Assembly (NCBI GenBank): GCA_964019335.1
Contig: OZ025718.1
Location: 428,323-492,322, forward strand
Length of the DNA stretch: 64,000 nt
Source: Diplonema japonicum
Taxonomy: Eukaryota > Protista > Euglenozoa: Diplonemea
Direction: 5' to 3'
The translations under genes and the position numbers were made by a program. Position 1 is the stretch's first letter, and every line of letters begins with the position of its first letter. Under the pieces are notes generated by a model that was not told the DNA's origin, searched no databases, and was given only the letters and a program-made list of their open reading frames with translations. This document shows positions 22,689-64,000 of this stretch, piece after piece.

Positions 22689-25600
22689 TTACCAAACAGA
22701 GCGGGGTTCCACTGGTGGTGGTTGCAGTTGTTGCTGGGCTGCGATCTCCTCCTTGTTACGCTGCAGCTGCTGCTGCCTGGTATCGTAACCCCGTTTGTTG
22801 TGCAGCCCGATGGTGACAACGATGAAGAGCACAATAGCTAAGTCAAGGATGCTTAACACGATTCCCAAAGAGTGCAACGCGTGCCCTATCTGTTTCAGTC
22901 TTTCCTTGTCACACGTTATCCCAGGCACGCACAACTCGTCTGCGTTGGCCTCCTCGAAGATCCTCGAGCCGAGGTTCTGCTGCAGCAAAATGAATGGCTG
23001 CAGCAACGCACCCAAAGCACACCCCAGCATGCACATACGGTTCAGAATGTCGAATAGTGAGCACACGGCAAACACACTCCCAAAGACCAGCGGTGCCAGC
23101 AGATACACCCAGCTCATCCCCGAGATCGCAAGAAACTCATCGTGCGAGCTGCACGCGTTGGGCAGCAGCTTGTCGACATCCATTCTGTACGGCTCGTACT
23201 CGTTCCAGTACGCGGAGTAGAACCCAAGAGACAGCAAGGACACCAAGATAATCGCAAAGGAACAACTCAAGATATACAGACGCGACCGTCGGCTGAAGTA
23301 GTTGGCGTCTGCCTCGTCTTCATCCAGTTTTTCCTCTTCGTCTTCCTCTTCTTCCTCCTCCTGTTCTTTTTCCAACTCCTCCGTTACGCCTGCTCCATGC
23401 TCCTGGTATTCATGGTTGGCATTGTCTGCCCCCCCACCACGACCATTTGCACTACTCCTTTGTCTGTCACCACCTTTTTTCTTAGATCCAAGTTTTGCGA
23501 TGCCGCTCACCAAGGCGCCCAAGACCACATTGGCGCCCAACGACACAGCCGATGCGGCGCCTGCTGTCTGGACTGTTGCCGAAGCATCCGCCAGCTCCTC
23601 GGGGGTGATCTCTTTCGGGAAGGCTGCTGTGTCTTCACCCGCAACCACTGCCACGGCAGCCTGTACTGCCTCGAGGACAGCTTCTAGTGCCTGCGGGGAT
23701 CCTGGGTTGAGGGTGGGTTCTTGCGTTGGCGGTGCTTCTGTAGGTGGGGCCGGGGTGGGTGCAATTGTAGGGCCATGTGTTGCGGGCACTGAGGTAAGAG
23801 GTGCAGACGTAGGCGGGCTTTGCGTTAATGGTGCTAGTGTATCGGGTCCTTGTGTGGGTTCGGCTGTAGGGGTAGGTGTTACGGGAGCAGACGTGTCGGG
23901 TGCAGAAGTATCAGGAGGCAGGGTGGGTGTCATTGCAGGGGCGGGTGTGTCGGGTGCCTTTGTAGCAGGTGGTGTCGTGTCAGGGGGTGCAGTGTTTGGA
24001 GCAAGCGTGTCGGGTGCCGAGGTAGGAGCTGATGTATCAGGACCAGGGGCTGGAGTGGGTGGCGATGTATCGGGTGCGGGCGTAGTAGGTACAGGTGTTG
24101 TACCAGGCACAAGGGTATCAGGTGCGGGAGTGTCAGGTGCAGGCGTGTTTGGAGCGAGTGTGTTAGGAGCTGGAGTAACAGGTGCTGGTGTATCGGGTGC
24201 CGGTGTAACAGGTGGCGTACCAGGTGCTAATGTATCAGGTGCTGGTGTAACAGGTGGCGTTACAGGGGCTAGTGTATCAGGTGCTGGTGTTACAGGTGGC
24301 GTAACAGGGGCTGGTGTATCAGGTGCTGGTGTTACGGGGGTATTCGGTACTAAGGTGCTCGGCGCAAGTGTATCAGGTATTGGCGCAGGGGCTGCTGTGT
24401 CAGGTGCGGGGGTTTGAGGTACGGGAGTATCAGGCTCAGAGGTATCAGGAGAAGGAGTATCAAGATCAATAGGTGCATCTTCGGGTGCATCGGGTTCAGA
24501 GGTGGCTGGTGCAGGTGTTTCGGGAATGGGTGTGAGGGGGCTAGAGGTTGGTGTCGCAGTAGGTGGTGCGTTTGTTGGTGGTGCATTTGTTGGTGTCGCA
24601 GTAGGTGGTGCATTTGTTGGTGTCACAGTAGGTGGTGCATTTGTTGGTGGTGCGTTTGTTAACGGAGGGCTGGGAGGGGTTAGAGTAGATGGTGCAATCG
24701 TTGGAGGAACAGGGGTTGGTGGGGCCAAAGTGGGCGGTGCTGGTGTTGGGGGTGCAGGTGTCGGAGGCGCTGGTGTTGGTGGTGCAGGTGTTGGTGGTGC
24801 GGGTGTCGGGGGCGCTGGTGTTGGCGGTGCGGGTGTTGGGGGCGCTAGTGTTGGTGGGGCAGGTGTTGGTGGTGCGGGTGTCGGGGGCGCTAGTGTCGGA
24901 GGAGCTGGTGTTGGCGGTGCTGGGGTGGGGGGCGCTGGGGTGGGCGGGGCCGGGGTGGGCGGAGCTGGTGTTGGGGGTGCAGAGGTCGGAGGTGAGGGTG
25001 TCGGCGGTGCAGGAGTTGGTGGTGCAAGAGTCGGTGGAGCTGGTGTTGGAGGTGCAAGCGTGGGAGGGGATGGTGTAGGCGGGAAAGGTGTGGGAGGTGA
25101 TTGCGTAGACGGTGCGGGTGTTGGAGGCGCGTCAGTTGGCGGTGCATCAGTAGGTGGGGTTGTTGGAGGGGATGCAGTCGGTGCGGCCGTGTTTGGTGCT
25201 GGTGTGAGCGGTATCGAAGTTGGTGGTGCCTGTGTAGGTGGCGCCGGAGACGGAGGTGCAGCAGTGGATGGGGCAAGAGTGGGCGGCGCTTGGGTGGGTG
25301 GTGCTTGGGTAAGAGGCGCAGGCGTAGGAGGGGAAGGCGTTGGCGGAGAAAGTGTGGGAGGTACTGGTGTGGGTGGTGATATTGTGGGAGGTGCCGAAGT
25401 GGGCACTGCAGTTAACGGGGGATTTGTTGCCGGTGCCTGTGTTGGCGGTGATGGCGTAGGTGGGAACGGCGTCGGTGGTGCTGCAGTAGGAGGTGCAGGC
25501 GTGGGTGGGGCATTTGTTGCGGGCGCAGGGGTTGGAGGCGATGCTGTCGGGACAGCGGTAGGCGGCGCAGGGGTGTCCGGTGCCGAAGTTGAAGGAAAAG

Positions 25601-28346: not shown

Positions 28347-28838
28347 ACAAGTACTACATGAAATAACAAAACTGGGGTGAGCCCATAAGGACCTCCTTCA
28401 TTCAGCTCGCTCGATCTCCTCCAATGTAGGGGGCACATAGCCACAGTCTCCTTCAGGCAGCGCCTCATCTTCTTGCACAGCAGGTGCAGCAAAGCAACTT
28501 AAAGAACTAAAAAAAGATTTTTTTGTAGGTGGAACGGGTACTGGGTTTGGCACATAAGTTCTCAGGTTCTGCTTACCGCTTGTCGGGTGCAGCATCGCCG
28601 CTGCATGCATGCTTTTCTCCAGACACCTGTAATGGGTTCAACAAGGACAGAAGCGCAAATGGGTAAAAACAACAGAAACTGATTGAACACCATGATGAAA
28701 TTGATGAAGCTACTGATGTGCTTATATAAACACTAAGTAAAGGGGTGTGTTTGGTGTGGAGAATGAGAAGGAGAAAGGAAAAGGCGAAATAAAGATCGAA
28801 AGTATGTCAGAAGAAATGGGAGGGAGGGGTAGAGGGAC

Positions 28839-47057: not shown

Positions 47058-47103
47058 TTTAACCTATGTATTCAAACCTCTTACCCCTTACTTGGTTTTT
47101 TTT
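47058..47103 (+). repeat. 45/46-bp direct repeat, left copy
   Basis: TTTAACCTATGTATTCAAACCTCTTACCCCTTACTTGGTTTTTTTT; second copy at 53633-53677 with 1 substitution and 1 indel. Confidence 0.85.
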
Positions 47104-47122
47104 AAAAAAATACGGGTCTGAG

Positions 47123-47244
47123 CAGTGTTGGTCAGTCCCGTCCCGTCCCCTAAAACGGAATACGGGCCTGGACGGGACTCACGGGACTCCACGGGACGGG
47201 ACTCGACGGGACTCACGGGACTCACGGGACTCTCCCCAACACTG
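47123..47244. mobile_element. Small MITE-like element with CAGTGTTG...CAACACTG termini
   Basis: 8-bp terminal inverted repeats and internal GTCCC/GGGAC sub-terminal repeats; no 8-bp TSD seen. Confidence 0.5.
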
Positions 47245-47762
47245 TCATTATTTTTGATAGTTTTGCAACTTTTTTTTTTTTTTTTTTTTTTTTTTCTCTT
47301 TGGAAAAAAAAAAATGGGGAAAAAAAAAAGAGAAAAAAATCCTTGATTTTCTTTTTGACATACATGATGTGTTTACCTTTTTTTTTTTTCCTTCTTTTTT
47401 TCTTGTCTTCTCACATTTTATCGCACACCTAAGCCAAGCTGTTGTTTCTACTTTCCGCATCAAATGTTGTATTTGGATGTAATAGAAAAGGGGGGAAATA
47501 ATAAATAATATGTACAAGAGGAGGGTATGTTTATACAACCTGTGTAAACAGATCGGTTCCTTGCTTTCAGCACCATGCCCCTAATGTGCAATGTACAGCT
47601 CAACCCCTGCATTGCACTGCCTGTTTGTTGCACATATTTTCATGTTATCCCCCCCCCACCTGAAAATAATAGAAAGGAGATAAATATATGAGTTAAAGGA
47701 GGCTGGTGTTGGCAGCACCCTGCACAAGAACTGTCTACTTGATTACAGGGGGTGCACCACAG

Positions 47763-48059
47763 CCGAGTTGTAGCTTCTTCTGCGTTCCGCGTCGTTTCCT
47801 TAATCACCACGGCCAGGATGTAGCTTCTTCTGCATTCCACATCATGCCCTTAATCACTGCAGCCAGGTTGTAACTTCTTGCATTCCATGTCATTTCCTTA
47901 ACCACCATGGCCAGGTTGTAGCTTCTTCTGTGTTCTGCATTGTGTCCTTAATCACCGTGGCCGAGTTGTAGCTTTTTGTGTTCCGTGTCATTTCCTTAAT
48001 CACGATGGCCGGACGGCCGGGTTGTAGCTTCTTCTGCGTTCTGTGTTGTGTCCTTAATG
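47763..48059 (+). repeat. ~47-bp degenerate tandem repeat, ~6 units
   Basis: Unit approximately GTTGTAGCTTCTTCTGCATTCCGTGTCGTGTCCTTAATCACCACGGCCAG; related units occur in both orientations through 49.3-51.5 kb. Confidence 0.8.
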
Positions 48060-48143
48060 TGTGTGGTGTTCAGCTCAACCCCAGCCAGGGCGCCCCAGGT
48101 AACTAAGATTCTGTGCTTGTGTGGTTTGCTCAGTGATGACAGA

Positions 48144-48225
48144 TGAGGAGGTCAACAGTGAACAACACATCTGATGTTTTTCTTATATTTTCATGTTATC
48201 CCCACCACCTGAAAAAGAAGATAAA

Positions 48226-48270
<45 letters not shown>

Positions 48271-48466
48271 TATATTGTGCACCAAGAGGTGCATTGTGAC
48301 ACCTGCTTTTCCCTGTGCAACATAGTGGTACATGTTATAAAACACGTGCTGTGTTGTGCACCCTGTGTTGCATACATCATGTGTGTCGAAAATTTGCGAT
48401 GTTGGGGTGGTTTGTGGGCCAGACCCCTCAGACCACCAGTCTGGCCAGCACTGCCCATCCCTTTTT

Positions 48467-48497
<31 letters not shown>

Positions 48498-49124
48498 GCT
48501 TTGTACTTTTCTTGCAAAGGCCTCTTTTTAATATTTTTTTCAAAGCAGGTCTCCAAACCCCCTGACATTTTTTTTAATTTTTTTTTTTTTTTTTTTTTTT
48601 TTAAATAGTCACAACAAGGTAGTATGAGCCTTGCCTCACATCCCACCCAAACCTAGGACCTCTTTTTTTGAACCTTTGAAACCAAAAGTGCCAGAAAAAT
48701 GCAAGCCCCAGCCTAAATTTGGGCCTTTGTGACACAAAAAACACAAAGAAATTTTTTGGTCCCAAGAGTCCCCTGAGTCCCCTCCAGACCCCTGAGTCCC
48801 ATGAGTCCCTCCAGTCCCCTGAGTCCCCTGAGCAGTGATGGGTGAATCCTAATTAGGACTAGACCGGACTGGACCAGACCAGACCGGATCTGGCGTGAAT
48901 TTCGACCCAATTATGCCAGACTGACCAGACTGACCAGACTGGACCGGACTGGACCAGACTGGACTGGACTGAACCAGACCGTACAAGATACAACACCACA
49001 ACACCACATCCCCCCTTTTTTTTGCTGCAGAGTTCAAACATATAAACAGATGTCTACAAGAAAAGATGTTACACAGGTACTGAGAGACGACGACAACAAC
49101 AAAAACAATGAGAAACGAAGAAGG

Positions 49125-49156
<32 letters not shown>

Positions 49157-51671
49157 CTTCTTTTTCAGGTGGTGGGGATAACATGAAAATATAAGAAAAA
49201 CATCAGATGTGTTGTTTGCTGTTGACCTCCTCATTGGTCATCACCAAGCAAACCACACGAGTGCAGAATCTTGGTTACCCAGGGCGCCCCAGCTAGGGTT
49301 GAGCTGAACCCCACACACATTAAGGACACAACACGGAGCACAGAAGAAGCTACAACTCGGCTGCAGTGATTAAGGACACGATGCAGAATGCAGAAGAAGC
49401 TACAACCCGGCTGCAGTGCACCCCCTGTAATCAAGTAGACAGTTCTTGTGCAGGGCACTGCCAACACCAGCCTCCTTTAACTCTTGTATATTATTCCAAA
49501 GGTGGTGGGGATAGCATGAAAAAACATCAGATGTGTTGTTCACTGTTGACCTCCTCATCGGTCATCACCAGTAGCTCCTGAGTGGAAGAACATAATGCAG
49601 ATGCTCAGGGTGACAAACAGGCAGCAAACTACACCACACACATTAAAGACATGACACAGAATGCAGAAGAAGCTACAATTCAGTTGCAGTGCACCCCTGT
49701 AATCAAGCAGACAGTTCTTGTGCAGGGCACCACCAACACCAGCCTCTTTTAACTCATATATGTATCATTCAGGTGGTGGGGATAACATGGAAATATAAGA
49801 AGTACATCAGATGTGTTGTTTGCTGTTGACCTCCATGTTGGTCATCACCAGTAGCGCCCAAGTGGAGAACATAATGCAGATGCTCAGGGTGATGAATTGG
49901 CAGCAAACTGCATGAGCACAGAATCTTGGTTACCCCGGTTGCTACAGCTGGGGTTAAGCTGCACACATTAAGAACACAACACAGAACACAGAAGAAGCTA
50001 CAACTCAGCTGCAGTGCCCCCCTGTATCAAGTTAACAGTTCTTGTGCAGGCACTGCCAACACAACAAACAGGCATTTCCTCCATCCACTTGGCCAGTCAT
50101 CACCTGTAGCACCCTGAGTGGAAGAACAAATTGCAGATGCTCAGGGTGAGTAAACTACTTAGGGCACCAGCTGGGGTTGAGCTACACACCACATGCATTA
50201 AGGACACAACATGGAATGCAGAAGCAGCCAAGGTGCACCTGTCACTGGTCTCCTTTACCTCTTTCATGTTATTTGGTGGTGGGGATCACAGAAATATAAG
50301 AAGTACATCAGATGTGTTGTTTGCTGTTGACCTCCATGTTGGTCATCACCGGTTGTGCCTGAGTGGAGGAACGTATTGCAGATGCTCAGGGTGATGAACT
50401 GGCAGCAAACTACACAGGCCCAGAATCTTAGTTACCAGGGCCATGGCTGGTGTTGAGCTGCACACTGCACACATTAAGGACATGACACGGAATATTGTGC
50501 TGTCAGTGTTGTGGTGATATAGTCACCACTTTCAACCTTGATGATGCAAAGAGGAAAAAAAAAGGGGGGGGGGGGAAAACTAGTTTGACACTCCATTTGT
50601 TTGTGTGCATGAGCAGAATTTTACCTAATAAAATAGCTCATTACGCTGCCATCAACTAGTTTTAGTCTCGACAATAATATTGTTAAAACAAAAAAAAAAG
50701 TAAGGAATTCCCTGTTCCACCAAGTTCTGGTTCTGCCATTCTGCCAAGTTCCGACTTTCAGTTTGGTGGAAGGGAATGGAACGACCCAATCCTGCACAAG
50801 TAGAATCTTGGTTACCCAGGATGCCCCGGCTGGGGTTGAGCTGAACACCACACACATTAAGGACACAACACGGAACACAGAAGAAGCTACAACTCGGCTG
50901 TGGTGTACCCCCTGTAATCAAGTAGTCTTGTGCAGGTCCTTTAACTCATATATCTCTCACCACGGCCGGGTTGTAGCTTCTTCTGTGTTTCGCATCGATC
51001 ACCACAGCCGGGTTGTATTACATCCAAATACAACATTTCCAGACATTTGTACATACCTGCAGCTGCAGTGCACCGGAGTAGATAGGTGCAAATGGCTTGA
51101 TGGAGCTGTGCATGTCTGTGGTATGAAGAAGAAGAATGACACCACAACCGAGTTGTAGCTTCTTCTGCATTCTGTGTCATGTCTTTAATGTGTGTGGTGT
51201 AGTTTGCTGCCTGTTTGTCACCCTGAGCATCTGCATTATGTTCTTCCACTCGGGAGCTACTGGTGATGACTGATGAGGAGGTCAACAGTGAACAACACAT
51301 CTGATGTTTTTTCATGCTATCCCCACCACCTTTGGAATAATATACAAGAGTTAAAGGAGGCTGGTGTTGGCAGTGCCCTGCACAAGAACTGTCTACTTGA
51401 TTACAGGGGGTGCACCACGGCCAGGTTGTAGCTTCTTCTGCATTCTGCATTGTGTCCTTAATCACTGTGGCTGAGTTGTAGCTTCTTCTGTGCTCTGTGT
51501 TGTGTCCTTAATGTGTGCAGGGTTCAGCTCAACCCTAGCCAGGGTGCCCTGGGTAACCAAGATTCTGCACTCGTGTAGTTTGCTTGGTGATGACCAATGA
51601 GGAGGTCAACAGCAAACAACACATCTGATGTTTTTCTTATATTTTCATGTTATCCCCACCACAAAAAGAAG

Positions 51672-51702
<31 letters not shown>

Positions 51703-52436
51703 ACCAACTTGGTTGAGGGTTTTATACCTAAGGTACTGAGGAGGGTGAACAAGGGGCCAAAGGCCACACCACAGCAGAAAGGTTCGATCAAGAGATAGAT
51801 TGAGACTCTTCAGGCGTCCTGCCACATACCAAAGGTACCCTTAAATGTCTCTGTTCTTTTTTTTTTTTTTTTTTTTCTTCATTTCTCATTGTTTTTGTTG
51901 TTGTTGTCATCTCTCAGTACCTGTGTAACATCTTTTCTTGTAGACATCTGTTTATATGTTTGAACTCTGCAGCAAAAAAAAGGGGGGATGTGGTGTTGTG
52001 GTTGTATCTTGTCTGGTCTGGTTCAGTCCAGTCCAGTCTGGTCCGGTCTGGTCTGGTCAGTCTGGTCAGTCTGGTCAGTCTGGCATAATTGGGTCGAAAT
52101 TCACACCGGATCTGGTCCGGTCTGGTCCAGTCTGGTCTAGTCCTAATTAGGATTCACCCATCACTGCAAGGGACTCAGGGGACTCTTGGGACCAAAAAAT
52201 TTCATTGTGTTTTTTGTGTCACAAAGGCCCAAATTTAGGCTGGGGCTTGCTTTTTTTGGTACTTTTGGTTTCAAAAGTTCAAAAAAAGAGGTCCTAGGTT
52301 TGGGTGGGATGTGAGGCAAGGCTCATACTACCTTGTTGTGACTATGTAAAAAAAAAAATTAAAAAAAATGTCAGGGGGTTTGGAGACCTGCTTTGAAAAA
52401 AATATTAAAAAGAGGCCTTTGCAAGAAAAGTACAAT

Positions 52437-52474
<38 letters not shown>

Positions 52475-52794
52475 AAAAGGGATGGGTAGTGTTGGCCAGA
52501 CTGGGGTCTGAGGGGTCTGGCCCACAAACCACCCCAACACTGCAAATTTTCGACCACACCATGTGGTGTGTTGTGACATATTTTACACCACATTTCACAT
52601 ACCTGATGTTCCACATGATGTATGCAACACAGGGTGCACAACATGGCATGTGTTTTATAACATGTACCACTATGCTGCACAGGGAAAAGCAGGTGTCACA
52701 ATGTGCACCTCCTGGTGCACAATATACAAAAAAAAAAAAAACTTTTATCATATAAGAAAAACATCAGATGTGTTGTTCACTGTTGACCTCCTCA
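48144..52794. repeat. Long inverted repeat: arms ~48144-49686 and ~51145-52794, ~1.45-kb spacer
   Basis: Colinear reverse-complement matches, e.g. GGTGAATCCTAATTAGGACTAGACC (48841) vs GGTCTAGTCCTAATTAGGATTCACC (52134), and near-identical translated junk ORFs on opposite strands. Confidence 0.9.
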
Positions 52795-52845
52795 ATGAAA
52801 TTTTCAGGGGTCTGGAGGGGACTCAGGGGACTGGAGGGACTCAAG

Positions 52846-53215
52846 CAGTGTTGTTATGGGAAAAAACCCGGGGGTGGGGGGGCAAAAAAAATTTTTTTTT
52901 CTAGGGACCCTCACACATTTAGCACCCTCAAAACAGACTTTTTGGAAATTTTTGGCCAAAAAAAATTTTTTTTTTTCCCAGGGGACCCTAAACTTGGGGT
53001 CACTTTGGCTATTTTTGACCCCAAAATTTTTTTTTGGGAAAAAGCCAGAAATCATGAAATTTATATTAAAAACACCTTATAAACCCATTTCTGCAATCCA
53101 AAAAGTTCAGAAAGGTGTTTAGGTGGAATACACATCTCTAAACTATATCCTGAAGTAAAAAGTAAGTAAAAATCCGAAAATCTCAGGGGGGTAACTCATC
53201 CTCATGACAACACTG
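52846..53215. mobile_element. MITE-like element with 15-bp imperfect TIRs (CAGTGTTGTTATGGG / CTCATGACAACACTG)
   Basis: hAT-like CAGTG termini with 2 mismatches in 15 bp; no TSD seen. Confidence 0.5.
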
Positions 53216-53632
53216 GGAGGGCAAAAAATAATTTTTTTTTTGAACACCCAATTTTGTCCCAAAAATGGAATTCTGAACAGCCAATGGAAAGTTTTGACCC
53301 CACTTGGACTGAAAATTTTTCTTCAAAAATCACTTTAGGGTCTAAATGGCCACCTGAAAATCACAAAATCAAGCTTCATTTTAGAATGGTATTTTGGAAT
53401 TTTGGCCTAATTTTGGGTGATGATAAGCAAAATTCACTTTTCAGGAAACACACATTTTCACACATTTGAATTTATTCTTTAGTTTTTTTCTGAACCTATT
53501 TAATTTTTAAACCTAATAAAGAAAGAGTAAATCCTCCTATTCAAAACTTTTTAGTCCCAGTGTTGCCAAAATGGGTTGAAAATTAAAGTACCCAGCTGTG
53601 GTTACTTAATCAAAAAAGAATTTAATAGCCCA

Positions 53633-53677
53633 TTTAACCTATGTATTCAAACCTTTTACCCTTACTTGGTTTTTTTT
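53633..53677 (+). repeat. 45/46-bp direct repeat, right copy
   Basis: Matches 47058-47103. Confidence 0.85.
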
Positions 53678-53777
53678 GTGGAATTTATTTCATTCTTTTG
53701 ATTCCTTGCCCAGCAATAGCAGTTGGTCTTTCCTCTTGGCTGCAATCTCCTTCACCTCCAGTGCTTGCCAACAATAG

Positions 53778-54254
53778 CAAACCCACAAACCCGCACGAGA
53801 AATAAAGCAATCACTTGGTTTTTTAGAATTGTGGGTGTGCGTGTCTGTGTGTGTGTCTGTGCTGGTGCCTGTATGGGTCTGTGTGCTTGCATTTATCTGC
53901 GTGGTGTGTCTGTGCGCGTGCGTGGTCTGTGTGTGTGTCTGTGTGCAAACCCGCAAACCCGCACGAGAAATAAAGCGATCACTTGGTTTTTTAGAATTGT
54001 GGGTGTGCGTGTCTGTGTGTGTGTCTGTGCGTGTATGGGTCTGTGTGCTTGCATTTATCTGCGTGGTGTGTCTGCGTGTGCGTGGTCTGTGTGTGTGTCT
54101 GTGTGCGTGCGTGTGTTTGCGTCTGTGCCTGTGTGCGTGCATGTGTCTGTGCTTGCACGTGTCTGTGTTGTGTGTGTACTCGTGTCTGTGCGGGTACGGG
54201 TGTGTCTGTGTGCGTGCATGCGTCTGTGTTGTGCATGTGTGTCTGGCAGTCTGT
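53778..54254 (+). repeat. Tandem ~167-bp GT-rich units, each headed by GCAAACCC(G/A)CAAACCCGCACGAG
   Basis: Unit starts at ~53778 and ~53945 are near-identical and begin with remnants of the CCCGCAAA satellite. Confidence 0.8.
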
Positions 54255-57200
54255 AGAGAGGAACACGAGGGGACCTGATCAAAGTGAAGGCGTGGGTGAG
54301 GGATGGAAGGAAGGTCACCCTCGACGTCTACGAGGGGAGGGGGCCCTGCGAGAAGGAGACGAGGCGCACTGTCCAGGACCATCTGCGGAAGATGGGTGTT
54401 GCCAAGGCGAGGGAGGGGGCGAGGGAGGCTGCCAGACAGGAGAAGAAAAGGCACCGTCGTGCGAGGAAAGAAGGGAGGAGGAGGGCCCGCAGAGAGGAAC
54501 ACGAGGCCGCCCTGGAACAGAAGCCAGATGACCCTGCAATGGGGCTGAAGCGGACCGAGGTGGGAACGCCTGGAGCCCAACCCCTGGCACCCAGAATCCC
54601 GGCACCTGGGGCTGCAACCGGCACAAGGAGGCACCGCAGACGGACGGGACACAGCAAGGAAGGGGTGAGATGGGAGCACCTGGGGGCGTGGGCCTGGGTC
54701 GCCCTGTTCTCCCTCTTGCTGATCCCAGGGGTGAGGCAGGTGCTGGGGGCGGGCATCGGGATGGCCCCCTCCTTCCTGCATGCGGCAGTGTTGTGGAAGA
54801 GGCCGGGGAGCGACAGGAGGACCACCCGCAGGTCAAGGGTACAGGTGGGGCCCCGAGGGGATGAATGGTCCGCTGGGGAGCTCGCTTGGCTAGCGGTAGG
54901 GGGCACTCTGGTGGGAAGCACTTCAGTTTGGATAGGGGGGCTGATGTCGCTCTGGGCCATGGTGGAAGTGATGGTGGGGAAAGCTGGTGCTGGCCCGACC
55001 CAGAGATTCGGACCGGTAAAGCTGAAGAAGACAAGACGCGGATCGAGAGGTCACTACCGGCCGGTGTACTTGGGCCCGCCTAGAAGCTCAAGACGCAGAA
55101 AAAAGAAGGAGGACGCCAAGCAAGCGGCGAAGGAACGAGCTGAGACGGAGGATAAGCTCTTTCAGGCCGAACACCTGGACCCCTTTGCGGACTTGACGCT
55201 GGCAGGGGACGCGTTGCAAGGAGGTGGTGACCCTCCCCCCATGGATTTGGATGATGAGCACATGGAGGCGCAGAAGGAGGGGGAAAAAGAAGGATCAGAC
55301 AAACATCAATGCCGGATGGAAGACTGCTCTTTCCGCACCAGTGTGGCAAGCTGTCTAGTTAAACACCTCAATGCGGTCCACCATCATTTTGTGAAACAAG
55401 AGCAGGCGAGGAGCATGAAGGTGAACCTCTGTGGAACGTGTGCTGCGGCGTGCTCGTCGAACCAGACGCACTGTGCACTACACAGGCAGCGGATCTGTGG
55501 AACCCCGACAAACAACCCAGGGCCGGCAAGTCAGTGGACGAGATCATGAAGAGCTTCAAGCTGACGAGGAGATCGACGGAGAAGGACGGGAACTGCATGT
55601 TCCACGCCCTGGCCGGTTCGCTCGGGGAAGCCTACGGCGACCACACCCACATCAGGAGCGAGGTTGTAGAATGGATGAAACACCGGGAGGAGCACTATGC
55701 CCCGTTTTGCAGTGAGGGTTGGGACCGGTACTTGGAAGGGATGGGCACAGCAGCGACGTGGGGAGACCACTTGTGCCTGGCAGCCGCAGCACAAGCGTTT
55801 GGCCGCACGATACTCGTGGTTGCTGGGGGGAACAACCCAGTCCTGATGATAGGGGAGTACAACTCCGACCACGAGAAGGTGGTGGTGCTGGCGTACAACG
55901 GCAACCACTACGAGTATGCAGTCGGAGAGGAGGAGTCGATGATGATGCTCCTTGATGAGTCCCAATCGGTAGCTCTACAAAAGGCAGGTAAGCAACCCTC
56001 CGAGGCCCCGGGTGAGGACATCGGGGAGTGGGACATAATAGACCGTGCGATCCCTGGATACGGGAAGGCAGGGGTGTTGGACCAGATGGGGGCAAGGAAC
56101 CAGCAATTCCTGTACTGTCCGGTGGCGAACTGCGCTAGGTCGAAGTGCAAAAGCACGACCCCGTTCAACTCGACAAGGGTATGGAAGTGTCACCTGGATG
56201 GGCACCTGGAGAGTGATGAGATCCCGGAGAGCGTTCTGAGGAGACTGGACCTCGAGAGGTGCCTGGTGTGCAGGGGCTGTGTGTGGAAGGGTCAGGGGTG
56301 CCACGACGAGTGCAAAAAGGCGGTGCGAAGGGAAGGGGAATACACGACCCCCCCGCCGGCCCCGACGAGGACCGAGTTACCCAGCCTGGAAACCATAGCC
56401 GCCATGAACGTCACGACCATGGGGTCGATCCCGACGAGCCTTCAAAGACTGTGGGGCTTACCCTTAAGCACACTCTGGGCCGAGCGGTGAAGGACAACAC
56501 AGAGGAGGCTTGGCTGCTGGTGGCGATGCTCCCCAAAGCCTGCCTGTGGAAGAAGAGGGGAGGGAAGAAGCGGGACAAGGAGACGGAGCTGAGTGTCCAG
56601 GCCAGATTGGAGGAGTGGGAGAAGGGAAATTACATGGCCCTCTGGAATAAGCTGGAATCAGGTGAGAAGGGGGAACCTAAGAACGACGAGGTCTCTAAGG
56701 TCGCCAGGGCCACGGAACTGTGCAGCAAAGGGAGGTTCTCGGCAGGAAACGCGGCGCTTGTAGCCCAGGGGCTGGCGGAAGACAATGAGGATTGCTGGAG
56801 AGCGCTGCAGAGCAAACATCCAGAGCCACTACACCCCCAATGGGACAACCCGGCGAAGACGAAGGAAGCGGTAGAAGTCTTGCCAGAAGAAGTGCTGGAC
56901 GCAATCAGGGACTTCCCGAGGGGGACTGCTGCGGGACCGACTGGTCTGAGAGCCCAGCACATCAAGGACGCGGTGGACGGAGCTTTTGAGTCTCAAGGCT
57001 GTTTGATGTCGGTGACGAGGGCAGTCAACGCATTAGCTAGAGGCACGGCCCCTAGGGAGGTGGCTCCGCTGATGGCAGGGGCGAACCTTGTGGCCCTCAA
57101 GAAGAACGACAGGGACGTGCGGCCCATAGCCGTTGGGGATGTGCTGCGTCGGCTGGTGGGGAAATCCCTTGTGAAGAAGATCGCTCCGGAAGTGGCCTCT

Positions 57201-60200
57201 TCGTACCTGAAGAAAGGCGGCCAGGTGGGGGTATCGGTCCCTGCTGGAATGGAGGCGGCTATACACACCATCAGGCAGTATGTGGACAGGGAACGGGGCA
57301 ACAAGCAGGAAAACAAGGTGATCCTCAAGATCGACTCCGCCAACGCCTTCAACAGTGTTTGTCGGAGGCAGCTGTGCTCACAGGCCTATGAGCAAGCGTC
57401 GGGGCTGTATGCGTGGGCCGATTGGTGCTACAGGGTGCCCTCCCAATTATACTACAACGGAAAGGTGATTAAGTCCCAGGAAGGGGTGCAACAGGGGGAC
57501 CCGATGGGACCGCTGCTGTTCTCTCTGGCCATCCAACCCCTGGTGAACAAGATAAGTGAAGACTGCAACCTGGACATCCTCCAGTTCTACCTGGACGATG
57601 GCGTCCTTGTGGGGAATGTGGATGAAGTGAGAAAGGCGTACAACATCTTGTGTGAGCTGAGCGGAATGATAGGGCTGAAAGTGAAACCCCAGAAGTGCGA
57701 GCTCATATGGGTTAGTGGCGACCTCCCCCAGACAGTGGAGGACACAGGCTTCGATGGCCTGACAGAAGAGAATTTCCACAAAGAGAGGAACTTCATGCTC
57801 CTGGGGGCGCCGATAGGATCGCCGGAGTACACGCAAGCCTTTCTGAACAAACGCTTGGACGCGCTGGAAGAGAACTTCGACATGCTGACCAAGGTGGGGA
57901 GGCAGACAGGGTACACACTTCTCCGGTATTGCAGCTCATACAGCAAACTGGTGTTTTACATGAGAGTGGTCCCAGACTCGCATGTGGGAGGGGTCATGCA
58001 CAGGTTCGACGAGATGGTGCGGAAGACGATGTCGAAGGTGTGCGGCATGCAGTTCGAGAACGGGTCGAAAGAATGGCAGCAGGCGAAACTGTCCGTAAAA
58101 GTCGGTGGGCTTGGGATGAGGAGCTGCCAGGAGCACCTGCGCGCGGCCAACATGGCTTCGAGGGCGTCGACGATGAAGCTGTGCAAGGAGCTGGATCCCA
58201 AATACGAACATGGGCTGGAAGGGGGTGTATGGGGGAGCTGGCTCGAGTGGTTCAACAGGACGAAGGGCGGCATGCAGATTACACCCGACATGGTGGCCAA
58301 GGCCCCCCACATCTGCAGCCAGAGGTGGCTCTCTAGGGTGCTTGATGAGAAGGCGCTGGAGGACCTCTTGGCGAAAGCAGATGCACGCTCGAGAGCGAGG
58401 TTGATGTCGGAGTCAATGCACTATGCGGGGGCGTGGTTGACGGCGACGCCTGACTTCTACAACCAGCTGTCGGACAACGAGTTTGGGGCTCTGATCAAGT
58501 GGTGGTTGGGGGCTCCGGTCTACAAGCAGGGTGAGAGCTGCCACGACCCGAGGTGCAAGACTGAGGGGATGGACGTATGGGGTGACCATGCCCAGGGATG
58601 CGGCAACGCCAGGATTGCGAGGCACGACCGGGTGAAGGAGACCATCCACAGACACTGTCAGTGGGCCGGGGTGAGCGCAACGATGGAGAAGACGGGGCTG
58701 ATCCCGGGGTCGTCCCAGCGCCCGGCGGACGTGTTCTTCCCAGGTGGGGTGGGGGGTTCCCGCCCAATGGCTATGGACGTGGTCATCGTGCACCCGAGGA
58801 ACGAGTCTTGTGTCAACCAGGCGGCGAAGACTGCGGGGTACGCAGCGGCGAAGGCGGAACACTACAAGCGCCAGAAGTATGAGGCGGAGCTCGCCAAGAC
58901 ACGCGTGGCCTTTGTACCTTTCGCGATGGAGACCTTTGGGGGGTTCGGGGAGGCAGCAGTCTACCTCACGAAGAAACTGTCCAGGAGCATAGCTGCGCGG
59001 GCTCACGGGGACAGAGTCTCGATACACAGGCGTGTGGTCCAAGAGGTGCCAACGGCCATGATGAGATCGATAGCAGGGGCGCTGTTAGTCAAAGGGCCTG
59101 TACAGTTGGATCCAGGGCCCCCGGTACCGGACGGCGAAGAGGAAAAAAAGGACAACGAGGAAGCGAACAACGAACCCAACACTGAATCCAACACTGACCT
59201 CACAGAGGACTCCTTCGGCAATGAAAAAACCACCGAAGCTGAGGAGTCGTCCGAGAGGGAAGTGAAGGGACAGGGGGGCGGACCCCCAATCACGGTGGCC
59301 CACCAGCTGGATGCCCTTCTGGAGCAGACGAAGAAGGACCTGGACGCCCGAATGCAGCAGCAGCGAAAGGCGGAACCGGTGGAGGGTGGAACACAAGGGA
59401 AAGCGGGAGCAGGACTCGAAGCAGCCTCGCCGGGAGGAGAAGACACGGAGATGGCCGGAACAGGATCCAGCGAGAGGGCTGGGCAGGGAGGGGAGCTTGA
59501 CCCGAAGGCCCAGGAAGATGGGAAGAGACAAGGGGCGACTGACGCTGCGGTGAACCAGACCTTGGACCAGTGTCCTAAGGGGGATACGGAGGCCCAGAGG
59601 GACTCGAACAAGGGGGACCAGAGTGCGACAACTGCTACGAGGAAGATGACCGTGAGCGAATTCTGTAGGGAACAAGCTGCGAAGAGACAGGGCGGTGGGA
59701 GGACTCTGAAGCCGCAGGCGGATGACGCCCCCGAAGGGACCAAAGAGGGCGGGAACGCACCGAGCGGAGGCAGCCAGTCGGGGCCTGACACACCTAGGGG
59801 TGGGATCCAGACGCCGGAGGGAGATCAGCTGATGGGAGTCGGGGCACCGGAAAGGGAACAGCAGGTGGAAGTAGGGGGAGACTTCGTTCAGCTTGACCCG
59901 ATTGATGTGGTGATGGGCATCCCAATTCCGAGAGCGATGGTGCCACTGAGGGCGAGGCCGGGGGACCGACTGCTCAAGTTCATCATCCAGTTCGAGGGCC
60001 GGGTGGAGATCATCCTTGAAGAAGGAACGGACCCTGGAAGGGAGAGGACTGAGGAGATGCTTCTTGCGAAGGCCGAGTCGCTGGGTGTTCCACTGGAGGT
60101 GGCTATGGCTGGCCAGATTGGTATCGCTGGACTTGGATACATGATGGTAAAGCAGTACTTCGCAAGCTTGGAAGGTGGGTCGGACGGAGAGCGCCGCAGC

Positions 60201-61879
60201 CGCATTGTGGGTTGTGAGGTGCAGAAGTCGGAAACATACCGCGAGTTCGAGTTCCCGAGGACGGTCCAGGATTTCCAGATCACGTACGCGTGTGGGTGTT
60301 CGGCGGTGCAACCTGTTCGTTTCAAGGGTGGCGTGCTCAAGGGGACTCTGGAAACGGCATGGAGGGTGGTCAAGTTGCAGACCCGGGGGTGCAGACACCA
60401 CCCGACACCGGGGAAGGAAGGGGTAGTGGGCATTGCGGCGGGAGCCGGCGCTACCAAGGTGACACTACGTGAGTTCTTGGAGAGGTGCGACGCAAGGATA
60501 AGGGCCCCAGTGGGAAAGGTCAAGGACCTGATCAAAGTGAAGGCGTGGGTGAGGGATGGAAGGAAGGTCACCCTCGACGTCTACGAGGGGAGGGGGCCCT
60601 GCGAGAAGGAGACGAGGCGCACTGTCCAGGACCATCTGCGGAAGATGGGTGTTGAAGAGGTCGACCTGCAGTCAGCGGTGGTGACGGTCCCGGGGTTGTT
60701 CGAGGACGTCTCCTTTGAGAGGTACCTTGGGCTGTTGGCCCGGAAGAAGGAGGAAGACAGGGAGAGGCGGCCTGAGGTGGTTGCCACGGACCTCCCCACC
60801 CTGGAAGAGCTGAAGTGGAGCAAGAAGGACAAGAAGCGGGCCCGGGCCCGATCGGCCAGTCGTGGTCGAAGCCAACATATGCAGGGGTGAGCTCAAGGGG
60901 ATGACCGGGCCCCAGTTCAAGTTCTTGGCGGAGCACAGGTTGATGGAAGAGCTGGGGAGCGACGACCTGGTGCGGGACACGGTCAAGGTGCGCAACAAGG
61001 AGAACTGGGCCCCGGTGAACAGTGCGGTGGCTTGGCTGCAGCTCGAGTCGGGGAGGGCACGGGTGGGGCCCATACCCCACAAGAAGAGGTCCAAAGGCTC
61101 GCTGGCCAGATAGGCCAGCGGGGGTGTGGGGGGCTGTTCTCCCCCCCCCCGCCATAGGAAGATGTGAAACTTTTTTTTTTTTTTTTCTGAGAAAAAAAAA
61201 AGGGAAAAATAAAAGAATAGGAACAGGTGCTACAACGGCCAGGCTAGATAGAACCACTTAGATTTTTTTTTTTTTTCCTTTTTTTTTTTTTTTCTTTTTG
61301 TTTTTCCTTTTTTTTTTTTTTTTTTTTTATTTTTCTGTTTTTCTTTTTCTTTTTCTTTTTGAAGTGGAACCATCTCGGTCGACGTTTTTTTTTTTTTTTT
61401 CTTTTTTCTTTTGTGGTGATGTGTTTTTCCTGTTTTTGATTTTCTTCTTCCCCCGCTCTATGCTTTTTCGCATGGACATTGGTCACTCTGCCCCTTTCCC
61501 CTTTTTTGATTCTCCCTCTTTCCCCCTCCTAAATTTTACCCCCTGCCCCACTCATTCCTCCCTAGTATGTTTTTGAATTTGCCTCTTCTTCTTTTAAGCC
61601 TTTTTTGAGATTTTTATTTTTGAATTTTTATCATTTGGAGTTGCTTCTTCTTCTTCCCCTCTCCCTCCCATAAAGAAAAAGAGAAACCCATGCCTTCCTC
61701 CCAGGTTGGAACTTGATTGTCTGTTTTGGAATATTTTTATTTTCTCTTAAGATTTATCGTGCCTTGTGTGTCTTTTGAAGAAAAAAAAAAAAAAAAAAAA
61801 CATTCTCAAGTCCCCCTTTTTATTTATTTTCTCAAGTCCCCCTTTTTATTTATTTTCTCAAGTCCCCCTTTTTAAAAAA

Positions 61880-61913
<34 letters not shown>
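54255..61913 (+). mobile_element. RLE-type non-LTR retrotransposon (CRE/SLACS-like), probably 5'-truncated, ending in poly(A)
   Basis: RT motifs (RPIAVG, KIDSANAFN, GVQQGDPMGP, YLDD, GGLG), CCHC knuckle (CHDPRC...DHAQGC), RHD, RPAD..D and K..KY RLE motifs; T-rich 3' UTR; A33 tail at 61881-61913 abutting (CCCGCAAA)4. Confidence 0.92.
54402..61113 (+). CDS. Retrotransposon polyprotein split by apparent frameshifts (~55505, ~56460, ~60850): hydrophobic N-terminus, C2H2 Zn finger, OTU protease, C2H2 finger, RT, RLE, C-terminal extension
   Basis: Track ORFs 54284-55549, 55438-56490, 56259-60890 and 60862-61113 overlap in successive frames. OTU: DGNC (Cys codon 55594), WG and NHYE (His codon 55906). 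YLDD at 57588. Confidence 0.8.
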
Positions 61914-61915
<2 letters not shown>

Positions 61916-61947
61916 CGCAAACCCGCAAACCCGCAAACCCGCAAACC
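61914..61947 (+). repeat. (CCCGCAAA)4 satellite spacer between two elements
   Basis: Directly visible after the poly(A). Confidence 0.95.
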
Positions 61948-61982
61948 AACGATTCTAAAGCTACAGTTTCTGTACTTTATTG
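61944..61982 (+). other. Spliced-leader (mini-exon) sequence, 39 nt, retroposed copy
   Basis: AACCAACGATTCTAAAGCTACAGTTTCTGTACTTTATTG: 39 nt, ends in the euglenozoan CAGTTTCTGTACTTTATTG core and starts with the diplonemid-type AACCAACGAT. Confidence 0.9.
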
Positions 61983-62126
61983 TGGTCGTTCGTGTTCTGC
62001 TGGTGCCTGCCGCCTCTGCCTGGGTTTGCAGAGACCGCGGTTTTGGCGAACCTTGTGGCCCTCAAGAAGAACGACAGGGACGTGCGGCCCATAGCCGTTG
62101 GGGATGTGCTGCGTCGGCTGGTGGGG

Positions 62127-62161
62127 AACGATTCTAAAGCTACAGTTTCTGTACTTTATTG
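62127..62161 (+). other. Second spliced-leader copy, nt 5-39 only
   Basis: AACGATTCTAAAGCTACAGTTTCTGTACTTTATTG followed by the same 5' UTR as copy 1. Confidence 0.9.
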
Positions 62162-62333
62162 GTCGTTCGTGTTCTGCTGGTGCCTGCCGCCTCTGCCTGG
62201 GTTTGCTGCTGCGTCCGTCGTCCGTCGTCGCCGTCGTCCGGGGGGGTTGTTTTGCCTGTCGGCCTGCCCGCCGCTTACCGAAAGGATCCCCTCCCCCAAC
62301 ACACACTTTAAAAAAAAATAAAAAAAATAAAAA

Positions 62334-64000
62334 ATGGATCCAAGACGGAATGCAAGAGGAGGTGACCGCGCAAACCGCAGGGAGAAGGAACCCCGACAGG
62401 CCGCCAGGCTGCACACGACGCCAGGGCCGACCCAACCAGACTATCTGGTTGGGCAGTATGAATCCCCACCCCCACCCCCTAGATCCCCCCACCCCCCTTT
62501 AGAAAAAAAAAATAAAATAAAAAAATCACTAGCAGAGACCGCGGTTTTGACCGCCGCTGCTACAGCCACGGCCGCCCCAGCCGCCCTGAACGCCGCAGCC
62601 GACCCTGCCGCCCTGATCGCCGCAACTGAGACCGCCGCAGCCGCCCCTGCCGCAGCCACGACCGCCGCGACCACGACCCCTGCAGCCGACCCTGCTATTG
62701 TTGAAGAGGGAAGAAAAGAGGGAGAAAAAAAGGGGTGGGTACTGGTGTATGGTGAACACCCTCCCGGGTTGAGGACGGGCCCGGCCCCTGCCTTCCCGAA
62801 AGCCCTGCTTTCAGGAAAGTGGGAGGCCCTGTCTGGGAACTCAGGGAGGGAGACCCTCCAATACGGGTACCGGTGGGAGGGGACGAACGCCAAGGTGCGC
62901 CCCACCACGGGGATCCCAGGGGGGGCGGAGGGGTGGGTGAGGGAGGTGGCCGCCGCCGCAGGGCTCGAGGTGGTCCCCAACCAGGTACTTGTCAACAAGT
63001 ACAAGTCTGGTTGTGGGATTGCCGCCCACAAGGACGACGCGAGGCTGGGACCGATTGTCCTAGTCCTCTCGTACGGAGCCGAGACCACAATGGTCATGAG
63101 GAGGGGGGACAGGGTGGCGAAATACCTGGTGCCCCCCTTCTCATGGGCATTGTTGGAAGGTGGAGCGAGACACCAGTGGACGCACCACATCCCGTCCGGG
63201 ATGTCCACTGGTGTCAGGGTGTCGATCACCCTGCGTGCGGTAGGCCCCAAGCTCACCCGCACACCCCAGGAAGACCCATCCCCTGGGTTAACAGACGAAC
63301 CCCCTTTTTTAGATCCCCTTTTTTGTGGGCAAGGGGGGGTGGCACTCCCAAGAGAGGATAGTGCCCCACCCGCCCCCCTTTTTTTTTTAGAACCCTCTTC
63401 GGAGGAAAACAGACCCTCTTCGGAGGAAAATAGAGAGAAAGGGGAAGAGGTGGCACTCCCGAGAGAGGGTGGTGCTCCTCCCCCCCATTTGTCCCCCCCT
63501 TTTTCATTTTTAGAGCCCTCTCCAGAGGAACCCTCCACGGAGGTAAAAAACAGACCCTCTTCGGAGGAAAACAGAGAGAGAGGGGAAGAGGTGGCACTCC
63601 CGAGAGAGGGTAGTGTTCCTCCCCCCCATTCGTCCCCCCCTTTTTCTTTTATAGAGCCCTCTCCAGAGGGACCCTCCACGGAGGTGAAAAACAGACCCTC
63701 TTCGGAGGAAAAAAAGGCAGAGGGAGAGACAGCACGCCCGAGAGAAGGTAGTGCCCCTCCCTCTCTGCCCCCCATTTTTTCTGGACCCTCTACGGAGGTG
63801 TACACCCTGGTCCCCAAGGGCCGGGGGCTTCCGCAAACCCGCAAACCCGCAAACCCGCAAACCCGCAAACCCGCAAACCCGCAAACCCGCAAACCCGCAA
63901 ACCCGCAAACCCGCAAACCCGCAAACCCGCAAACCCGCAAACCCGCAAACCCGCAAACCCGCAAACCCGCAAACCCGCAAACCCGCAAACCCGCAAACCC
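62334..64000 (+). CDS. AlkB-family 2OG-Fe(II) dioxygenase domain protein; no stop codon, runs into the satellite at 63831
   Basis: Manual translation from ATG 62334: MDPRRNARGG...RETLQYGY...PNQVLVNKYKSGCGIAAHKDDARLGPIVLVLSYG...ARHQWTHHIP...RVSITLR. All AlkB motifs are present: NxY 62994-63002, HxD 63027-63035, distal H 63183, RxSxTxR 63216-63236. Confidence 0.88.
   Translation, partial: MDPRRNARGGDRANRREKEPRQAARLHTTPGPTQPDYLVGQYESPPPPPRSPHPPLEKKNKIKKSLAETAVLTAAATATAAPAALNAAADPAALIAATETAAAAPAAATTAATTTPAADPAIVEEGRKEGEKKGWVLVYGEHPPGLRTGPAPAFPKALLSGKWEALSGNSGRETLQYGYRWEGTNAKVRPTTGIPGGAEGWVREVAAAAGLEVVPNQVLVNKYKSGCGIAAHKDDARLGPIVLVLSYGAETTMVMRRGDRVAKYLVPPFSWALLEGGARHQWTHHIPSGMSTGVRVSITLRAVGPKLTRTPQEDPSPGLTDEPPFLDPLFCGQGGVALPREDSAPPAPLFFLEPSSEENRPSSEENREKGEEVALPREGGAPPPHLSPPFSFLEPSPEEPSTEVKNRPSSEENRERGEEVALPREGSVPPPHSSPPFSFIEPSPEGPSTEVKNRPSSEEKKAEGETARPREGSAPPSLPPIFSGPSTEVYTLVPKGRGLPQTRKPANPQTRKPANPQTRKPANPQTRKPANPQTRKPANPQTRKPANPQTRKPAN
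63339..63800 (+). repeat. 141-bp (47-codon) tandem repeats within the AlkB ORF, ~3.5 degenerate units
   Basis: GTGGCACTCCCGAGAGAGGG recurs at 63450 and 63591; encodes VALPREG...EPSPE..STEVKNRPSSEE. Confidence 0.85.
63831..64000 (+). repeat. Perfect (CCGCAAAC)n array, at least 21 units, open at window end
   Basis: Directly visible; the reverse complement is (TTTGCGGG)n. Confidence 0.97.

Follow-up and report, generated by a model that had tools for sequence, protein, structure and literature searches.

The retrotransposons SLACS, CZAR, CRE1 and CRE2 of trypanosomatids encode zinc fingers, a reverse transcriptase (RT) and a restriction-like endonuclease (RLE) in a single open reading frame (ORF), carry a poly(A) and an internal repeat region, and insert inside spliced leader (SL) RNA genes with target duplication (PMC12278014). 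MoTeR1 of Magnaporthe and FoTeR of Fusarium, which are related to CRE elements and target telomeres, combine an RT with a C-terminal RLE, form head-to-tail arrays with short repeat tracts between the copies, have their sense strand on the C-rich strand with C-strand repeat after each 3' end, and include many truncated copies (PMC7367193, PMC12857005). An N-terminal cysteine protease is known from the RLE elements NeSL and Utopia-1_TSP (PMC4640811), and an AlkB domain is fixed in a Gypsy retrotransposon lineage of Phalaenopsis orchids (PMC9289625). Here we report on a 64,000-nt stretch of Diplonema japonicum DNA (the window, i.e., the whole stretch analyzed), in which an array from about position 53777 to 64000 holds a 5'-truncated copy followed, head to tail, by a 3'-truncated copy of one SL-headed CRE-like retrotransposon without long terminal repeats (non-LTR). 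The explanation that we consider probable is that a single such element, in two truncated tandem copies and with AlkB, OTU, RT and RLE in a single ORF, is likely target-primed into the 8-bp repeat CCCGCAAA and likely uses its AlkB to demethylate its own RNA.

The window element shares with SLACS, CZAR, CRE1 and CRE2 the single ORF with zinc fingers, RT and RLE, the poly(A), the internal repeat region and the euglenozoan host, but it is itself headed by an SL and has the 8-bp repeat as its 3' flank; neither AlkB nor a protease is described for those four elements in the available text of PMC12278014. With MoTeR1 and FoTeR it has in common the RT and C-terminal RLE, the head-to-tail array with repeat tracts, the C-rich sense strand, the repeat following 3' ends, and the truncated copies. 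Unlike both, it carries AlkB, OTU, an SL head, a long poly(A) and CCCGCAAA and has no MoTeR2-like partner; its ORF spans 2,758 amino acids (aa) compared with about 1,150 to 1,184 in FoTeR, and its 5' end points away from the open repeat end, whereas MoTeR and FoTeR 5' ends face the chromosome end. The protease of NeSL and Utopia-1_TSP is of the Ulp1 type rather than OTU, and these elements belong to another clade with other targets and, as far as the available text goes, have no AlkB. The orchid Gypsy is an LTR element with an ALKBH5-like protein in a separate ORF, whereas the window element is non-LTR and has its AlkB, which is nearest to the ALKBH8 type, as part of the RT polyprotein. A multicopy family in Diplonema papillatum shows the same layout in one ORF (AlkB, basic/hydrophobic spacer, zinc finger, OTU, zinc finger, RT, RLE and long tail); its members are labelled just "SLACS 132 kDa protein," "tRNA methyltransferase" or "hypothetical" and are not the closest branch to the window RT.

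In the literature searched (most subscription papers, Repbase and Additional file 1 of PMC10161547 lay outside the search), we came across neither this family nor any non-LTR element with AlkB, and AlkB is not mentioned in the available part of PMC6431247. The combination of AlkB and OTU, of which a first-pass annotation of this DNA knew no description, was likewise not met with in that literature. There are precedents for proteases in RLE elements and for AlkB in an LTR element; the same searches gave no AlkB fused into a non-LTR RT protein.

One element in two truncated copies

The first-pass annotation, which was made from the sequence alone, had divided the array into two different elements, the second being a separate, non-autonomous SL-headed AlkB passenger. 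The parts it listed were all found: the OTU, RT and RLE of the first (Pfam domains and RLE motif) with a poly(A)33, the 39-nt SL at 61944 at the head of the second, and the exact 84-nt RT duplicate (62045-62128, identical to 57080-57163). The division itself was not borne out by the contigs of public sequencing runs, of which 20 hold part of the window and 12 hold at least half of its words. Four runs from 4 studies (X1, X2, X4 and X9; one is a possible source of the window) were compared with it. Contigs of X1 and X9 run from 63830, where the AlkB segment is cut, via 289 bases absent from the window into 54402; an identical 30-base loose end precedes 54402 in X2 and X4, and in X2 non-repeat sequence follows 63830. 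The AlkB segment is thus the start (the 5' 1.9 kb) of a following copy of this one element; in the runs it continues into the RT ORF, and the 84-nt RT piece is therefore self-sequence.

The reading frame agrees with this joint. Two frameshifts split copy 1 of the window into three ORFs, and in all four runs an additional base follows 55492 and another follows 56452; both extend a short base run. A real frameshift inactivation of the family was ruled out, as both frameshifts are absent from all four runs; they look like base-calling errors or copy-specific changes. Once the gap and the two additional bases are filled with N, translation of the window slices runs for 2,758 codons up to a lone stop at codon 2759, and only this run-supported combination of gap length and frameshift correction stays open, the other 11 of 12 breaking earlier. 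The unit is about 9.5 kb long and comprises the SL, a leader, the 2,758-codon ORF, a 3' untranslated region (UTR) and the poly(A).

Contig depth, which was not treated as copy number, is similar over AlkB and RT (2529 versus 2553 to 2636 in X2, 858 versus 722 to 955 in X4, and 5.8 to 9.0 versus 6.4 to 6.7 in X1), unlike what would be expected for a single-copy host gene beside a multicopy element. Together with the frame shared with the RT and the fusion in D. papillatum, this RT-like depth excluded AlkB as a single-copy host gene, in keeping with the first-pass annotation. Two separate elements, with an autonomous OTU-RT-RLE element mobilizing an SL-AlkB passenger in the manner of a MoTeR1/MoTeR2-like pair, would fit the window, where the AlkB segment has repeats on both sides and no RT, and MoTeR2 is a published precedent (PMC7367193). 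Nevertheless, we regard such a pair as extremely improbable, because the runs pass 63830 into 54402, the frame is kept, D. papillatum has the same layout in one ORF, and the AlkB segment has neither a poly(A) nor a shared 3' end of its own.

As a separate observation, X9 holds a second variant of the AlkB region (62649-63354), with 55 letter differences and 5 gaps, many of them G to A, beside a near-identical one; it may be either a sister subfamily or a deaminated copy.

Domains and diplonemid relatives

The protein is ordered as AlkB (residues ~150-301), a Pro/Glu repeat, a basic and then a hydrophobic stretch, a zinc finger, OTU (Cys 994, His 1098), zinc fingers, RT (YLDD at 1659), CCHC-RLE (1976-2100) and a tail of about 660 aa, which has no match in Pfam, NCBIfam or relatives and no usable match in the ESM Atlas. 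Pfam E-values are 2.7e-13 for 2OG-FeII_Oxy_2, 5.5e-13 for OTU and 1.9e-16 for RVT_1. The AlkB had been called intact-looking, and its iron ligands (HxD...H) and RxxxxxR are indeed all present; the domain scores below the NCBIfam AlkB cut-offs, and among solved structures the ALKBH8 domain, which acts on tRNA, comes closest to it (E 1.6e-8). The OTU motifs (Cys, Trp and His) are also present, and the nearest solved structures are OTUD5, OTUD3 and OTUD1 (E 5e-6 to 3e-3). AlkB is a predicted demethylase and OTU a predicted deubiquitinase.

The assignment to CRE-like RLE non-LTR elements, also made in the first-pass annotation, is supported by the RLE anatomy and by the best matches, with the qualification that the labels are automated and the tree is without named references. 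The hallmarks of RLE-type non-LTR elements (a YxDD RT followed by CCHC and a PD-(D/E)xK-like nuclease) are present, as is the CRE-type single ORF with N-terminal zinc fingers, and the element is without LTRs, ends in poly(A) and shows variable 5' truncation. The RLE has all key residues, with 3 of 7 spacers in the range of SLACS and CRE1/2 and the other 4 off by 1 to 3 residues. The best RT matches carry the automated label "SLACS 132 kDa" (E 1e-175), R2 structures match at E 1e-7, and no named CRE-clade reference is among the matches. D. papillatum proteins are the closest RT relatives that bear a name, which, together with the SL, makes a diplonemid host very likely.

Relatives with the full architecture were found by a HMMER search with the AlkB domain over 1.84 billion representatives; a word-based search had found no long AlkB fusion. 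Of 1,237 matches, 150 were listed and the 13 longer or best ones were scanned, one of which (P0188, KAJ9446222.1) also had OTU; its 90% cluster holds eight D. papillatum members. Two of these, KAJ9442719.1 and KAJ9464152.1, carry AlkB, OTU and RT in one ORF, with order and spacing as in the window element, and KAJ9446222.1 and KAJ9435373.1 carry AlkB and OTU. The window element and its D. papillatum counterparts are 40% identical in RT-RLE (983 residues compared) and 38% identical in AlkB (135 residues), and the iron and 2-oxoglutarate ligands of AlkB are retained in both. With regard to database labels, KAJ9439924.1 (P0178) and KAJ9446222.1 are annotated as tRNA methyltransferases and have an element-type AlkB and, by Pfam, no methyltransferase domain.

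The window RT falls in a 15-row clade with D. papillatum proteins (FastTree support 0.935; 148 of 167 relatives had enough RT). An OTU upstream of the RT is widespread in this clade, and in several members the RT is also followed by a USP or a second OTU-like domain. A scan of 217 proteins, many of them N-terminally incomplete, gave AlkB in the window element and the D. papillatum family only; three further matches are stand-alone members of AlkB clusters. The two element AlkBs do not group in free trees (43/153 rows; long branches), and constrained AlkB monophyly was not rejected (p-AU 0.78), its log likelihood (lnL) being 20.5 better than that of a quick free search. A single acquisition of AlkB followed by later loss is possible on these trees. 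Metagenomes yielded no relative: a scan with the RT alone gave 48 stretches, none of them related, and after a scan with the alignment of relatives, none of 80 kept loci (of 492 distant ones) had AlkB or OTU by profile. A weak SL-like match at one of these metagenome loci (L070) was taken as chance.

Within the same group of proteins, P0357, P0365, P0002, the P0005 cluster and P0334 have two predicted deubiquitinases, an OTU before the RT and a USP or second OTU-like domain after it, some together with RNase H1 N-terminal hybrid-binding domains.

The 8-bp repeat, the spliced leader and insertion

As the first-pass annotation had stated, CCCGCAAA repeats lie before, between and after the copies, as tracts at 61914-61947 and 63831-64000 and as 19-nt remnants at 53777 and 53945. 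The two remnants share one tandem duplication and hence count as one event; no match to them at one mismatch or fewer occurred in 20 shuffles of bases 1-61900, and none lies on the minus strand. Two of the four substitutions between the ~168-nt units that contain them are CpG to CpA. The element passes into the repeat at 61913 (its poly(A)) and 63830 in the window, at 60747 in X9 and at 61136 in X2, and the repeat passes into the element at 61944 (the SL) in the window, at 59957 in X4 and at 61606 in X2. The TG-rich left flank is joined to other element start points, 61945 and 61566, in runs X4 and X2. Strict insertion into the CCCGCAAA repeat is likely, although several 5' junctions in the runs are without it. 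Of the earlier proposal that two RNAs are inserted into this repeat, the two RNAs give way to one element, and the repeat, which the poly(A) abuts, is still the likely target.

We take the consensus named "Euglenozoa 14" to be the Diplonema SL. The SL at 61944 matches 37 of its 39 bases (PMC3795323; compared by hand), and a second SL copy at 62127 is without the first four. Both 5' junctions in the window are built alike, each from a 16- to 17-base and an 84- to 131-base element fragment in the sense orientation, and all four mosaic fragments (16, 17, 84 and 131 nt) are on the same strand and joined over 0 to 2 nt of microhomology. These fragments likely arose from template jumps of the RT between element RNAs before the 5' end was completed, with repair synthesis as the alternative origin; multi-jump chimeras made by the RT of a long interspersed element (LINE) have been published (PMC2104539). 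The second SL copy, the 16-, 17- and 131-nt fragments and the two frameshifts had escaped the first-pass annotation. The outer SL begins with four bases that also fit the repeat. One joint in X2 and X4 retains SL bases 2 to 4 without repeat, so that a block near the SL start, if any, is not absolute. SL copies with a different upstream flank occur in 6 contigs of X4 and 1 of X9, and with a different downstream flank in X2 and X9; these are likely the SL RNA genes, which would thus be free of the element. A candidate reading in which the element inserts into SL RNA genes was rejected, as the 3' flank is the 8-bp repeat and a whole SL heads the element. In another context, X2, X4 and X9 share a loose end at 62173, after the SL and 12 leader bases, which points to another SL-headed family whose leader is related.

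In the mechanism that we propose, the element RNA would be SL trans-spliced, and the RLE would nick the G/T-rich strand of a repeat tract, whose T-run would prime on the poly(A), as known RLE chemistry would allow. Near the 5' end the RT would jump between element RNAs, giving the mosaic junctions, and it may finish where the start of the SL matches the repeat over 4 bases. The 5'- and 3'-truncated copies would then result from cutting and resection at the tracts.

The roles of the accessory domains are more tentative. In trypanosomatids, the four cap-proximal bases of the SL carry base methylations, a state that may differ in diplonemids, and the inner SL copy of the window stops just short of these four bases. 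In cis, AlkB might act on base methylation that stops reverse transcription or flags the RNA for silencing, a possibility that we hold to be less likely than not; the tested retrotransposon AlkB is an RNA N6-methyladenosine (m6A) demethylase in vitro (PMC9289625). Somewhat less probable is an action on DNA rather than RNA, through alkylation repair or oxidation of silencing marks on element copies. DNA methyltransferases are said to silence transposons in D. papillatum (PMC10161547), and the neighboring repeats are CpG depleted (observed/expected ratio [o/e] 0.27 and 0.0) relative to the element (0.57 to 0.71), but the nearest solved relative acts on tRNA, the retrotransposon AlkB tested acts on RNA, and the higher CpG of the element may merely reflect youth. 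The OTU could well remove ubiquitin from the polyprotein or process it, a proposal on which we are evenly divided.

Several observations weigh against the overall explanation of one repeat-targeted AlkB-OTU-RT-RLE element. Most OTU-bearing clade members are without AlkB, which makes AlkB dispensable; only 3 of 40 forks of the AlkB tree are supported and its branches are long; and single-sequence structure predictions are of low confidence (pLDDT 35.7 for AlkB and 34.4 for the C-terminal tail). The 289-nt segment was read just at its edges (30 and 17 letters, open in frame by hand), and an inner stop or an intron is possible, although the D. papillatum counterpart is a single ORF. From the runs, this account draws on 15 joints out of 21, 12 between-letter rows out of 20 and 24 loose ends out of 221. 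No single run contig covers the whole array, the copy order and mosaics being those of the window alone. The window holds the single poly(A)-to-repeat junction seen, and few junctions stand behind target specificity. Joints without repeat occur as 55294-to-SL and 55907-to-SL in X2 and X4 and as 58002-to-61520 in X2, and in X1 unique left flanks without repeat precede 60288, 61464 and 61667.

These repeat-free 5' joints and three unique left flanks would be expected if the element were real but not repeat specific, inserting in repeat-rich gene-cluster spacers and its own copies, with the tracts arising later by breakage, healing or satellite growth. Three 3'-truncated copies that meet the repeat directly without poly(A), the spread of the relatives' proteins over many long contigs, and the lack of a similar 5- to 10-nt tract beside the RT gene at all 80 distant loci (28 to 43% identity) point the same way. 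We nevertheless think this unlikely, since the one intact 3' end meets the repeat with the T-run in the register that target priming would give, the repeat is joined to seven points of the element across the window and three runs, and FoTeR 3' ends are likewise followed by 3 to 7 C-strand repeats (PMC12857005).

Also unlikely, to a similar degree, is a chimeric assembly, in which the multicopy element would be real but its arrangement in the window (copy order, mosaics and the junction with the gene-bearing arm) would not. Imperfect base calls are indeed indicated by the two indels in short base runs and by further differences that set the window apart from all four runs, no contig spans the array, and the repeat strand is reversed relative to a normal right-hand telomere; however, the TG-rich left flank is joined to the element in both X2 and X4, and independent runs show junctions of the same kind. 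An assembler, moreover, does not usually produce short exact same-strand inserts.

The orientation of the array bears on what the repeat is. TTTGCGGG, the reverse complement of CCCGCAAA, looks like a telomere G-strand. We found no published report of the CCCGCAAA motif. The repeat is most likely a telomere-type motif in an array that is internal or mis-joined. In the window, the 5' end of the element faces 46.7 kb of genes and the C-rich strand runs to the window edge, an orientation that is wrong for a normal right-hand chromosome end. The simplest readings are an internalized array like MoTeR relics, an internal satellite or a mis-join. It is highly doubtful that the window instead ends at a chromosome end of reversed polarity, with the C/A-rich strand CCCGCAAA running 5' to 3' toward the terminus, arrays with 3' ends outward, eroded copies (63830, 60747 and 61136) re-capped with the repeat, and the element's own AlkB clearing SL cap methylations to let its RNA be copied in full. 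Such a terminus would explain the 3'-truncated copies capped by repeat, and it contravenes the general rule for telomere strands.

Features of the window and implications

The positions of the element features are collected in Table 1. An Rfam scan gave no match.

Table 1. Positions of the element copies, their domains and the flanking repeats in the window
Feature	Position	Strand	Remark
~168-nt unit, older copy: 19-nt repeat remnant (one mismatch), then TG-rich	53777..53944	+	92.9% identical to 53945-54106
Second ~168-nt unit (exact 19-nt remnant) and TG-rich tract, left flank of copy 1	53945..54254	+	
16-nt same-strand element fragment (= 54491-54506), 5' junction of copy 1	54255..54270	+	Exact
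131-nt same-strand fragment of C-terminal coding region (= 60524-60654)	54271..54401	+	Exact
Copy 1, 5'-truncated, mid-ORF to poly(A)	54402..61913	+	Runs continue left of 54402 toward 63830
Three zinc-finger-like Cys/His motifs around OTU (starts 55310, 56131, 56260)	55310..56315	+	Motif scan
OTU cysteine-protease domain; Cys at 55594, His at 55906	55585..55902	+	Pfam
Reverse transcriptase core, YLDD at 57588	57099..57710	+	Pfam
CCHC knuckle and RLE (C-C-H-C, RHD, E, RPAD, D)	58539..58911	+	Motif as quoted in PMC12857005
C-terminal extension, ~660 aa up to stop	58912..60890	+	No family found
T-rich 3' UTR, then poly(A)33 at 61881-61913	60891..61913	+	
(CCCGCAAA)4.25 spacer; final four bases shared with first four of SL	61914..61947	+	
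Outer SL exon (39 nt) and leader, 5' end of copy 2	61944..62029	+	
Mosaic insert: 17-nt fragment (= 62533-62549) and 84-nt RT fragment	62029..62128	+	Exact, same strand
Inner SL copy from SL base 5-7, and leader	62127..62206	+	97.6% identical to 61948-62029
Copy 2: ORF codons 1-499, cut at 63830	62334..63830	+	
AlkB-family 2OG-Fe(II) dioxygenase domain; NxY, HxD (63027), distal H (63183), RxxxxxR	62835..63236	+	Pfam, residue check
Pure (CCCGCAAA)n tract, 21.25 units, reaching the last base of the window	63831..64000	+	

Ordinary eukaryotic genes, named by inspection only, fill bases 1 to 46.7 kb. On the minus strand of this part, a 1,900-codon ORF (22689-28397) is hydrophobic at both ends, contains a long array of Pro/Thr/Ala pentapeptides and resembles a mucin-type surface protein. 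Between the genes and the array, 46-nt direct repeats (47058-47103 and 53633-53677) bound a 6.5-kb CpG-depleted block (47058-53677; o/e 0.27) with long nested inverted repeats of up to 533 nt at 95%, which has the look of an old foldback insertion whose target duplication was long. The sequence immediately left of the first remnant (53300-53776) is CpG free; contigs cover it about as deeply as the element in X2, X4 and X9 and not at all in X1. At its end lies a coding-like remnant of the minus strand, cut at 53776. This sequence may be a repeat of the subtelomeric or the dispersed kind.

The retention of an intact AlkB in two diplonemids whose RTs are merely 40% identical points to a methylation-based conflict between these protists and their retrotransposons, which could be tested with the element AlkB as a small expressible domain, and it represents a second route, after the orchid Gypsy, by which retrotransposons have taken up AlkB. 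A dozen AlkB-type genes have been counted as host regulators in D. papillatum (PMC10161547); some of these are transposon cargo, and KAJ9446222.1 is one. Further, the clade appears to collect deubiquitinases on both sides of its RT. If CCCGCAAA is a telomere repeat, the motif would be one that we have not found in print, and its use would represent independent telomere targeting by a CRE-like element.

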